This document shows, piece by piece, positions 2,169 through 4,241 of a stretch of 38,825 bases of DNA. The notes below the pieces were generated by a model. That model saw only the letters and a list, made by a program, of their open reading frames with translations, made no database searches and was not told where the DNA came from. Source of the stretch: Deltaproteobacteria bacterium (GTDB lineage Bacteria > Myxococcota > JACRCW01); contig JACRCW010000140.1 of NCBI GenBank assembly GCA_016218805.1, positions 1-38,825 on the forward strand, read 5' to 3'. Each line of letters begins with the position of its first letter. Position 1 is the stretch's first letter. The position numbers were made by a program, and so were the translations under genes.

Positions 2169-4241
2169 TCAGTGGAATGTCAGGCCCGTGTACGTCACCG
2201 CGGGGCCCGTGGCGCCATAGGGGTACAGCGTGGGCGCGGTGCCGGTGTACAGGTCATAGTCCTCATCCATGCTGCCGGTGGACCACAACACGCCCTGATA
2301 CGGCACGTCCCACACCGCGGAGAGGTTCTGCTCCACCGCCTGCTCCAGCGCGTATTCGCGCCGCAGGCGGTAGGCGGAATCCGCAATGTCCGCAAAGCAC
2401 ATGTTCATCTCCGCCCAGCCGTACCAATGCGCGTAATCCGGGTTCATGTGGTACGCGCCGTGCCACGTCTTCACAAAGTCATACTTGTACAGCTTGAAAT
2501 ACAGCCGCTCCGGTTCGCTGAGGTTGCGGTACAGCATGGGCCCGCCCAGCACGATGGGCGCCGTGGTGTTGTCCGGGTTGGGATCGCGCGGGGTCACCTG
2601 CGGGGCGGGCACCAGCAGTGTGTCGCGGTTGAGTGCCAGCAGGATGTCGGTGGCCTCGTCCACGATCTTGTGCGCGTTGTCATGCATGCCGTCCGCCACG
2701 TCCAGGCGGTACTCCGCCCAGTTGGAGGCGTGGCACCGGCTGCACACTGCCACCATCTCCTCGCGGCGCGCCGCCAGCACGGGTGCGGGGTCCACAAACT
2801 GCACCACCGTGCCGTCCCGGTCCTCCGGGTACTGCGCGGAGTCCGCAACCGAATCCGCCCCGCTCATGTCCACCGGCGCCGCCGGGTCAAACGCGGGGTT
2901 GGGGTCCAGCGTCCCGGTGGTGGTGTTGAGCACGTACGGCAGCTCCCCCGCGCGCTTGAGCGTGCGGTGGCTGGCCTGCCCGCCCACGGGACCAAACGCG
3001 ATGCCGTACCCCAGGTCGTGGTCGGTGTAGACCTCGCCGTTGGTGGCGGTGCGTTTCAAGGGCATGTGGCAGGTGGCGCAGCTGGGCGCGCGGCCGGTGT
3101 CGCCCTCAGCCTCAAAGATGACGCCGTGCTTGGACGCGGACCAGATCTCGTACTGCGGGTGGTCGGGGCCCATGTGGCAGGTGCCGCAGGCGGAGCCCTC
3201 GCGCGCTTCACGCGGGCGGAACTCGTGGCGGCTGTGGCAACTGTCGCACTTGTTCTCCACGTTGTGGCACTGCATGCACGTGGCCACGCCGCCGGAGGCC
3301 GGGTCCGCGGCGCCGGCCGCGCTGCACGGGGGGAGATCGTCGTAGCGGCCGGCTTCGTAGACGCGCTGCGCGCCCACGGCGTGCCGGTTGGCCTGGTGGC
3401 CGCGGTACTGGTTGGGATGGCAGGTGGCGCACGTGGCCGCGCCGGGCATCAGCCGGTGTTTGGCCCCCGGCGTAGTCACCGAGGGGTTGGCCGCGTGGCA
3501 CTCGCCGCAGGAGACCTCCTGCGCCATTTTCCCCGCCTTGTAGTCACGCACCGGGCCGGGCGTGAGCGTGAGGTGGCACAGGATGCATGCGTCACTCTCC
3601 GCCTTCCAGTTGGCCAGCGTGAGGTCCACGGTGACGTCCCGCCCCGCCAGAACGGAAACCACCGCGGTGGCCGGCGGGTAGTCACCGGTGCCGTTGGTGG
3701 TGGTGAAGCGCGCGGTGAGTTCGTAGACGCCGGCAGGCAGCGCGGTGAACGCGTACCCGCCGTTGGCGTCCGTGGTGACGTCCGCGGCCTCCGCCGGGGC
3801 CAGGCTCACCACCGCGCCCTGCAGCAGTGTGTTGCCCACGGCCGCGCGCACCGTGCCCGACAGGTTGCCCGTGCTCACGCCCGCGGGGCCGGTCGGGCCC
3901 GTGGCGCCGGGGTCTCCGGTGGCGCCCGTGTCGCCGGTGGGGCCGGTGTCGCCCGTGTTGCCCGTGTCCCCCGTGGGGCCGGTGTCGCCCGTGGGGCCGG
4001 TTGGCCCGGTGGCGCCCGTGGGGCCAGCTGGGCCCGTGTCCCCGGTGGGGCCGGTGTCACCCGGGTCACCGGGAGCACCGGCGGGGCCGCGCGGACCGGT
4101 GGGGCCGGTGGCGCCCGTGGCTCCGGCGGCGCCGGGTTCACCCGCTGGGCCCGCGGGCCCCTCGGTGCCGCAGGACGCGACAGCAACAACGGTGGTGGCC
4201 AGGGCCAGTGCGCGCAGCCCGGCCAGGGAATGTCTCGTCAT
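2169..4241 (-). CDS. Lipoprotein with collagen-like repeat, carboxypeptidase-regulatory-like beta-sandwich and octaheme c-type cytochrome of the HAO family
   Basis: Lipobox VAS-C24. 33 Gly-X-Y triplets. [29 protein letters not shown] beta-sandwich. Eight CxxCH motifs (CILCH, CGECH, CATCH, CMQCH, CDSCH, CGTCH, CATCH, CSRCH) with HAO-family context [29 protein letters not shown] and [24 protein letters not shown]. Confidence 0.9.
3873..4169 (-). repeat. Collagen-like (Gly-X-Y)33 coding repeat
   Basis: Residues 25-123 are uninterrupted G-X-Y triplets (mostly [12 protein letters not shown]), giving 9-bp periodicity in the DNA. Confidence 0.95.

Follow-up and report, generated by a model that had tools for sequence, protein, structure and literature searches.

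The 38,825-nt contig JACRCW010000140.1 of the Deltaproteobacteria bacterium assembly GCA_016218805.1 (hereafter the window) carries the gene for P0001, a predicted lipoprotein in which an octaheme head with the modelled fold of the hydroxylamine oxidoreductase (HAO) family is joined to its lipid anchor by a collagen-like stalk (Table 1). We found that this stalk is a host-wide spacer module and not a feature of the HAO, and residues of the active site point to a reductive-type head, whose activity is predicted. Taken together, the best explanation would be a lipid-anchored, reductive-type HAO trimer on a host-wide, probably triple-helical spacer, reducing nitrite, NO or hydroxylamine, with a modest lean towards a periplasmic location; we give this combined account about an even chance of being right. 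No published description of a collagen-stalked multiheme or HAO cytochrome was found in the full-text literature, outside which most subscription papers and supplements lie, and the word 'collagen' is absent from the main text of a survey of Desulfuromonadia cytochromes (PMC11492766). An earlier reading by a model that saw only the DNA letters and their open reading frames (ORFs), the sequence-only reading, had likewise known of no characterised protein with this architecture. What is new here is the host-wide set of stalks matched in length and register, together with the active-site marks of the head.

That reading had described a lipobox Cys24, 33 uninterrupted Gly-X-Y triplets, a beta-sandwich and eight CxxCH motifs with HAO-type spacing, all of which were confirmed by motif scanning, Pfam searches and structure modelling. 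Cys24 is preceded by a hydrophobic signal and lies in the lipobox VAVASC (a pattern found by eye and by script), and a Cys occupies the same place before the repeat in all 20 orthologue loci scored. The single Gly-X-Y run of P0001 (residues 25–123) has Pro 14 times, Asp 8 times and Ala 7 times at X and Thr 20 times at Y. Pfam assigned Collagen (54.4 bits, cut-off 27.2), CarboxypepD_reg at 127–209 (38.8 bits, cut-off 32.3) and Multi-haem_cyto PF13447 (91.1 bits, cut-off 21.9), with CxxCH at positions 219, 245, 271, 322, 332, 352, 388 and 500. Structures that match the modelled beta-sandwich include 5aq0_B (TMt 0.82) and 1qmu (Z 13.9, rmsd 1.2 over 78 aligned residues). A relationship to Kustc1130, the assembly factor of hydrazine dehydrogenase (HDH), was rejected as unspecific (6hif_Y, E 9e-4, TMt 0.64), since carboxypeptidase domains fit better; it also fell outside the 50 entries listed by the structure comparison (one row per entry). 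The GC3 of the ORF is 0.90. Public contigs from groundwater runs tile the stalk without indels (X1 at 3790-4107 and 4086-4338, X2 at 3912-4115, X3 at 3806-4045); they stem from four runs of one study, none spans the whole stalk, and X1 is possibly the origin of the assembly itself.

A homologue search found 213 proteins, and the 120 listed comprised 22 close (55–79% identity), 17 second-tier (37–41%) and 81 more distant matches. Runs of at least five triplets were present among these listed matches in 16 of the close proteins (the other six begin inside the beta-sandwich), in 9 of the second tier and in none of the distant ones. Clustering at 50% placed the full architecture in two clusters plus fragments, with a stalk in 1 of 146 further representatives. 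By GTDB label the close tier belongs to Myxococcota or Deltaproteobacteria, to which the second tier adds Phycisphaerae, and both tiers together form one clade (support 100/100 in a midpoint-rooted tree of 39 rows). The nearest orthologue, P0002, is 79% identical and has 22 triplets, with no Arg triplet. The homologue count that the sequence-only reading had proposed thus describes the collagen-stalked octaheme architecture as a small family, mostly from uncultured Myxococcota.

A six-frame scan was run over the P0001 genome (6.4 Mb, 92% complete). It returned 31 ORFs with at least six triplets and 10 with at least 20, and nine of these 10 combine lipobox, stalk and CxxCH motifs. Five of the eight non-HAO heads are OmcA/MtrC-like (contig ends truncate two of them), and the other three are a triheme, a diheme and an unclassified octaheme; four of the OmcA/MtrC-like paralogues exceed the TIGR03507 cut-off and one scores 204 against 209, and solved-structure relatives of two paralogue heads were limited to weak matches. 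Counted from the Cys, the nine stalks span 33, 36, 36, 36, 37, 37, 38, 40 and 50 triplets, the longest, with perfect repeats inside it, being a possible mis-assembly. Triplet 9 is Gly-Pro-Arg in every one of the nine, and in eight it is the sole basic triplet. Aligned in register over their first ten triplets, the HAO stalk and its paralogues have an X/Y identity of 0.58, compared with 0.26 after shuffling and 0.21 against orthologues. Where residues are the same, codons are identical in 0.448 of pairs, and saturation predicts 0.449 (HAO pairs, 0.49 vs 0.44); the likeness is therefore an old one, maintained at the protein level. Recent gene conversion as its source was accordingly rejected, except for the pair L018/L022. 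In a rough scan the stalk was present in 8 of 23 heme lipoproteins of the genome and is therefore not universal. The special pairing of stalk and trimeric HAO head in the sequence-only reading was not supported as stated, the stalk being common to eight other heme proteins, five of them OmcA/MtrC-like.

Side observations concern some of these and other heme proteins. The stalked triheme leads an operon (L020:2936-8397, G000:C42) that also encodes a Tat molybdopterin oxidoreductase of unassigned type, together with a 4Fe-4S subunit and a TorD-like chaperone; the oxidoreductase matches PhsA best (281 vs a cut-off of 694), and no membrane anchor subunit was seen there. The stalked octaheme (L023:2955-5402, G000:C90) has only a weak likeness to OmhA/OcwA (E 0.003); its neighbours are the gene for a cytochrome c' and a two-component gene pair. 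'Beaded' stalks, in which short Gly-X-Y runs alternate with two-Cys modules of about 24 residues, occur in the MtrC-like lipoproteins L253, L254, L256, L259, L275, L276 and L278. A stalkless lipoprotein (L234:4563-7484, G000:C128) carries an octaheme tetrathionate-reductase-like domain (303 vs a cut-off of 375).

The stalk probably forms a triple helix of about 29 nm. From the lipobox Cys to the beta-sandwich, 437 of the 439 in-register slots in 20 orthologue loci are filled by Gly, while X and Y vary and lengths range from 15 to 44 triplets; such a strict Gly register is what a triple helix requires. The sequence-only reading had put the stalk at roughly 28 nm, and the length stands at 28.7 nm (99 residues at 0.29 nm) if the stalk is helical, the helix itself being predicted. 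A rise of 2.9 Å per residue and a bacterial domain of similar length that is a true helix of 28–32 nm are described in PMC3368898, Pro at X with Thr at Y is the commonest make-up of bacterial collagens (PMC8968730), and Gly-Pro-Arg is reported to be as stabilising as Gly-Pro-Hyp (cited in PMC8233474), which would fit a role in nucleation or register at triplet 9. Alternatively, the repeat could be a flexible, possibly Thr-glycosylated single-chain tether that holds the head on a leash with no stable triple helix. The stalk is acidic and Thr-rich and also carries heads that are probably not trimers (the five OmcA/MtrC-like proteins, the diheme and the triheme); in Shewanella, MtrC sits in a 1:1:1 complex (PMC5971433). 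Furthermore, Phycisphaerae relatives have non-collagen linkers, 8 of the 17 second-tier proteins lack a run of at least five triplets (two of them start at the heme domain), and 15 of the 23 heme lipoproteins in the rough scan are stalkless. However, a loose linker needs neither a Gly at every third residue nor a fixed Gly-Pro-Arg slot, and the similar-length bacterial domain does form a helix, so that we regard a tether as unlikely.

The head was assigned by sequence and by model. A sequence search of the PDB gave eight strong matches among 10, all to the HAO family (best 6h5l, E 2e-30; 4fas, E 4e-28). An AlphaFold2 model of residues 126–690 (114 sequences, pLDDT 92.8, pTM 0.88) resembles 6h5l (best by Foldseek, E 4e-19), 6hif, 4qo5 and 1fgj, and superimposes on 4n4j with Z 24.8 and rmsd 2.6 Å over 333 residues. 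Sequence matches, motif spacing and the modelled fold thus bear out the HAO-family head of the sequence-only reading. Its homotrimer was modelled with three copies of residues 305–637, a trimmed head without hemes, using a custom alignment. The three-copy score was 0.73 against 0.00 for the best control (contacts agreeing in at least 68%, pLDDT at least 72). Of the solved pairs used for calibration, 20 of 30 reached the mark that the model passed, as did 1 of 23 single chains; these rates apply only roughly to three copies with a custom alignment. In the modelled interface, Asp602 and Trp606 contact the Gly358/Asp360 loop (358–360) of the neighbour, as in the HAO arrangement. The proposed homotrimer therefore passes as a model, a pass that may itself stem from solved HAO trimers.

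The sequence-only reading had gone further: helix nucleation would fall to the HAO trimer as trimerisation domain, in a combination peculiar to this enzyme. This would fit the modelled trimer and the usual dependence of prokaryotic collagens on a trimerising domain (PMC8968730, PMC3368898), as well as the fixed spacer between stalk and heme 1, which measures 88–89 residues in 19 of 19 complete close loci and 19–21 in the second tier. As to whether such a domain adjoins the helix, head and stalk of P0001 are 88 residues apart and the N-termini of the head are peripheral. The heme-1 ends of HAO lie on the outside of the trimer (PMC6469936), so the head cannot occupy the helix axis as a classical trimerisation domain would. 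With the same stalk on eight other heads, and the HAO stalk nearer to the host's other stalks than to those of orthologous HAOs in 7 of 9 genomes, we consider nucleation by the HAO head quite improbable.

Stalk length was compared between HAOs and other stalked cytochromes of the same host. In a first set, 119 of 196 collagen matches were fetched, covering 11 orthologue genomes; other stalked cytochromes were present in eight of these and in the P0001 genome but not among the fetched loci of the remaining three, and two incomplete stalks of genome G045 (30 triplets, no heme seen) were excluded. HAO stalk length correlated with the median of the other stalks, interrupted runs being summed (ρ = 0.77, p = 0.016, n = 9), and it was the triplet make-up that lay nearer to own paralogues than to orthologues in the 7 of 9 genomes mentioned above. 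A second set, chosen by MtrC head, kept 17 of 30 loci with values entered by hand (dropped: seven beaded, two interrupted, two incomplete, one wrong ORF and one with no HAO value; the partly beaded L262 was kept) and gave ρ = 0.71 (p = 0.004, n = 14), or 0.64 when the P0001 genome was left out. These data are suggestive of a stalk length that follows the host genome.

Turning to the active site, Asp360 and His361 are kept in every aligned row with a residue there. By count along the 4fas alignment, the cross-linking Tyr of oxidative HAOs (Tyr467 in Nitrosomonas) is not present at the aligned site of P0001, which is His605; a one-residue gap could move the site to Trp606 but never to a Tyr, and Tyr603 and Tyr607 flank it at two residues. 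The site is His in 39 of 40 family rows, a state named reductive in PMC12758564. The Tyr-less enzyme HAOr reduces nitrite, NO and hydroxylamine, with no oxidation, in the account of PMC8042395, and the characterised members of the wider group covered in PMC9250108 are all nitrite or NO reductases in vitro. The sequence-only reading had spoken of a nitrogen-oxide (or sulfur-oxide) redox enzyme and left the direction open; with His605 in place of the Tyr, the head points to reduction. Other positions set the family apart. Met239 is Met in 23 of 23 close rows and His in 65 of 74 distant rows, Cys306 is present in 23 of 23 close rows (the second tier has its own spare Cys, at column 297, in 17 of 17), His282 and His520 are kept in 40 of 40 family rows, and the terminal His690 in 37 of 40. 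HAO-family enzymes have seven bis-His electron-transfer hemes. In P0001, six conserved His are candidate distal ligands (262, 287, 339, 372, 408 and 598), picked with the ligand list of Nitrosomonas HAO; the seventh position is Met239, for which His282 or His690 could substitute. The C-terminal extension was modelled with pLDDT of about 87–95 and had no Atlas match above 0.76.

The likeliest substrate in this host would be nitrite from periplasmic NapA, because no other nitrite reductase was found. NapA exceeds its cut-off, and a cbb3 oxidase and a second heme-copper oxidase are present, whereas profile searches of the 92% complete genome did not find NrfA, NirS, NirK (best 43.8 vs 296 bits), Hcp, NarG or MtrB. 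A comparable route, a reverse HAO reducing Nap-made nitrite with no canonical nitrite reductase, was proposed for Nautilia (PMC2628731). Among the 21 orthologue genomes, of unstated completeness, NapA is present in 3, NarG in 3, NrfA in 8 and OmcA/MtrC-like genes in 19, the last compared with 9 of 40 genomes of a phylum sample, a contrast inflated by kinship. The HAO-stalk family accompanies stalked decahemes more than nitrate reductases, and the notions that it replaces NrfA or travels with nitrate reductase were rejected as family-wide rules on these counts. The same co-occurrence, together with the conserved non-canonical residues and the extra Cys that bonds heme 4 in HDH (PMC6469936), could indicate that the head is no nitrogen-oxide reductase but an electron hub or store in a network of stalked cytochromes, or that it acts on sulfur or another substrate via Cys306 and the extra histidines. 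The intact Asp/His pair and heme-4 context, the uniform nitrite or NO reductase activity of the characterised relatives (PMC9250108) and the NapA of a genome with no other recognised nitrite reductase make such a role improbable in our view. A divergent heme-copper oxidase subunit I (L247:1186-2976, L248:1369-2799, G000:C154; CtaD 86 vs a cut-off of 671), with a second COX1-like gene nearby, was also noted and is possibly an NO reductase.

In the account we prefer, three heads would form the usual HAO trimer, as modelled, and heme 4, lacking the Tyr cross-link, would most likely reduce nitrite, NO or hydroxylamine, as Tyr-less HAOs do. Three Gly-X-Y chains would wind into a triple helix of about 29 nm between anchor and head, and then splay via three beta-sandwich spacers towards the peripheral heme-1 ends. 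Electrons may arrive from other stalked cytochromes or from soluble shuttles; nine heme proteins on stalks of similar length would hold their heads at a similar distance from the same membrane, where mutual electron passage is possible. The 28.7-nm stalk is comparable to the Shewanella periplasm (23.5 nm, PMC5971433), and we modestly prefer the periplasm over the cell surface. It is also plausible, at somewhat less than an even chance, that the stalked proteins stand on the outer surface, above lipopolysaccharide or slime, or on vesicles, and exchange electrons with minerals, humics or other cells. OmcA and MtrC are surface lipoproteins in Shewanella, and five paralogue heads resemble them; in addition, three cytochromes with 30–33 hemes adjoin large unnamed Myxococcota proteins. 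Against a surface location, MtrB was not found in the P0001 genome or in the 21 orthologue genomes (a weak control, as the searches held no true positive), the operon of the stalked triheme with a Tat-exported molybdoenzyme is a periplasmic arrangement, and the nitrite made by NapA arises in the periplasm. In all, four cytochromes have 30–33 CxxCH motifs, three of them beside the large proteins (L225:3999-11921, L227:4531-9677, L232:4713-9562), as candidate non-Mtr porin–cytochrome conduits; for the one large neighbour tested, the nearest named Atlas clusters carry the beta-barrel family BBP2_2 on 20% of members, a weak lead.

A number of observations weigh against the preferred account. The passing trimer model, built from a trimmed head free of heme, may reflect solved HAO trimers that the predictor remembers or that the head resembles. 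With a net charge of −9, no Lys and one Arg, the acidic stalk lacks charge-pair stabilisation, and the positional signal seen strongly in the P0001 genome is weak in 12 others (0.15–0.38 vs 0.11–0.24 shuffled). The length correlation is gone among the ten short-stalk genomes (ρ = 0.31, p = 0.38), G045 is an outlier, with 15 triplets on its HAO against 33 and 17 on the others, two of the four long-stalk genomes (G041/G042) are sisters on the tree, and nine proteins are common to both length tests; because of the outlier, the sisters and the shared proteins, the trend rests on perhaps two or three independent events. Met239, Cys306, His282, His520 and His690 differ from characterised HAOs, so that other chemistry is possible. 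The substrate link is weak across the family, where nitrate reductases are rare and NrfA often co-occurs, and no conserved neighbours support it. The MtrB searches, finally, had no true positive among their controls.

Crossing 20–30 nm of periplasm or coat is usually credited to diffusing shuttles or porin–cytochrome conduits, and a spacer of fixed height, if true, would be another design. It is a testable one, being common to nine proteins here and differing threefold in length from one genome to another. The Tyr-less HAO group would be extended into Myxococcota with an unusual conserved Met239, Cys306 and terminal His, and together with NapA, in a genome where no nitrite reductase is recognised, the head would provide a candidate route of nitrite reduction that surveys of marker genes would overlook or take for nitrification. 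More speculatively, and in our estimation a long shot, Myxococcota might build a 'canopy' in which stalk length is tuned to the envelope and the shared register (an acidic start, with Gly-Pro-Thr/Gly-Pro-Arg at triplets 8–9) allows stalks encoded by different genes to assemble together. Dissimilar heads (MtrC-like decahemes, diheme, triheme and octaheme) would then come together in groups of three, close enough for electron transfer, at about 30 nm from the membrane; the HAO trimer would be the catalytic end-point of this collagen-scaffolded respiratory layer, which would need no MtrAB conduit.

Among known systems, HAOr (Kustc0458 of Kuenenia stuttgartiensis, 6H5L) is like P0001 in its eight hemes, Asp/His pair and missing cross-link Tyr. 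Its residue at the aligned site is Trp, and it acts together with a diheme partner protein in a complex (PMC8042395); P0001 has His605 there and differs further in Met239, Cys306, an insertion of 80 residues and its C-terminal extension, lipid anchor, stalk and beta-sandwich. Nitrosomonas HAO (1FGJ/4FAS), Kuenenia HOX (4N4J) and HDH (6HIF) share the fold (Z 19–25) and the trimer arrangement modelled for P0001, which differs from oxidative HAOs in lacking Tyr467 (NF052343, 75.5 bits vs a cut-off of 900) and from HDH in its heme 3 motif (CX2CH instead of CX4CH; PMC6469936). The reverse HAO (epsilon-HAO) of Nautilia profundicola, likened here by description, is Tyr-less and has been proposed to use Nap-made nitrite, as we suggest for the P0001 genome; unlike in Nautilia, no Hcp was found here, no quinol dehydrogenase gene is adjacent, and the protein is a stalked lipoprotein. 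Prokaryotic collagen-like proteins (Scl1/Scl2, EPclA, Lcl) share the anchor, the unbroken Gly-X-Y stalk, the globular head and the bias for Pro at X and Thr at Y, but their heads are adhesins or phage domains, whereas P0001 presents a redox enzyme on a lipid anchor; it scored far below the cut-offs of three NCBIfam adhesin models. The OmcA/MtrC decaheme lipoproteins correspond to the five paralogues matching TIGR03507, which carry stalks of 36–50 triplets in a genome where no MtrB was found.

Table 1. Features of the P0001 gene and protein, in window coordinates
Feature	Coordinates	Strand	Basis
Whole gene, 690-aa predicted lipoprotein (P0001)	2169..4241	minus	
Ribosome-binding site AGGAGG	4249..4254	minus	sequence upstream of ATG
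Signal peptide and lipobox, predicted lipid-bearing Cys24 (4170-4172)	4170..4241	minus	
Collagen-like stalk, 33 Gly-X-Y triplets, residues 25-123, net charge -9	3873..4169	minus	
Gly-Pro-Arg, triplet 9, sole basic triplet of the P0001 stalk	4089..4097	minus	
CarboxypepD_reg / transthyretin-like beta-sandwich, residues 127-209	3615..3863	minus	
HAO-fold octaheme head (modelled), residues about 213-637, eight CxxCH	2331..3605	minus	
CxxCH of heme 4, catalytic heme by homology	3264..3278	minus	alignment to 4fas/6h5l; PMC6469936
Asp360-His361, conserved distal Asp/His pair	3159..3164	minus	alignment; PMC6469936
His605, position of P460 cross-link Tyr467 (Nitrosomonas HAO)	2427..2429	minus	alignments
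Met239, likely His/Met-ligated heme	3525..3527	minus	family alignment
Cys306, spare cysteine 13-17 residues before heme-4 motif	3324..3326	minus	family alignment
Beta-rich insertion between hemes 7 and 8, about residues 404-483	2793..3032	minus	model secondary structure; gap vs solved HAOs
Family-specific C-terminal extension ending in conserved Thr-Phe-His	2172..2330	minus	alignment and model

The HAO gene stands alone between genes for a dTMP kinase and an alpha/beta hydrolase. Clustering the neighbours of 27 loci and the window gave generic kinases, sigma-54 regulators or clusters of two to four loci (the ORF filter lost the HAO gene in several loci), on which basis an operon or conserved gene partnership was rejected, and no recurring redox partner was seen among the 31 neighbours scanned. 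Rfam had no match in 1900-5000 nor in nine sources, no sigma-70 site was found, and no convincing FNR, sigma-54 or CRP-type box was seen with consensus motifs. No RNA run was listed as containing the gene. The upstream intergenic region at 4625-4739 holds an array with a period of about 21 bases and no Rfam match, possibly REP-like, with one other cluster in the genome (G000:C10:4769-4840). Elsewhere in the genome, at L240:2624-14471 (G000:C165), lie genes for two multiheme proteins of very large size, with 14 and 19 CxxCH motifs, for which the matches were to an NHL propeller and M36-peptidase-like domains. Within the window, a PIN-domain gene and an adjacent ribbon-helix-helix gene at 11712-12507 are likely a VapBC-type toxin–antitoxin pair, and a Ser/Thr kinase at 5472-8081 has a long repeat region at its N terminus that resembles clathrin/IFT122 TPR models.

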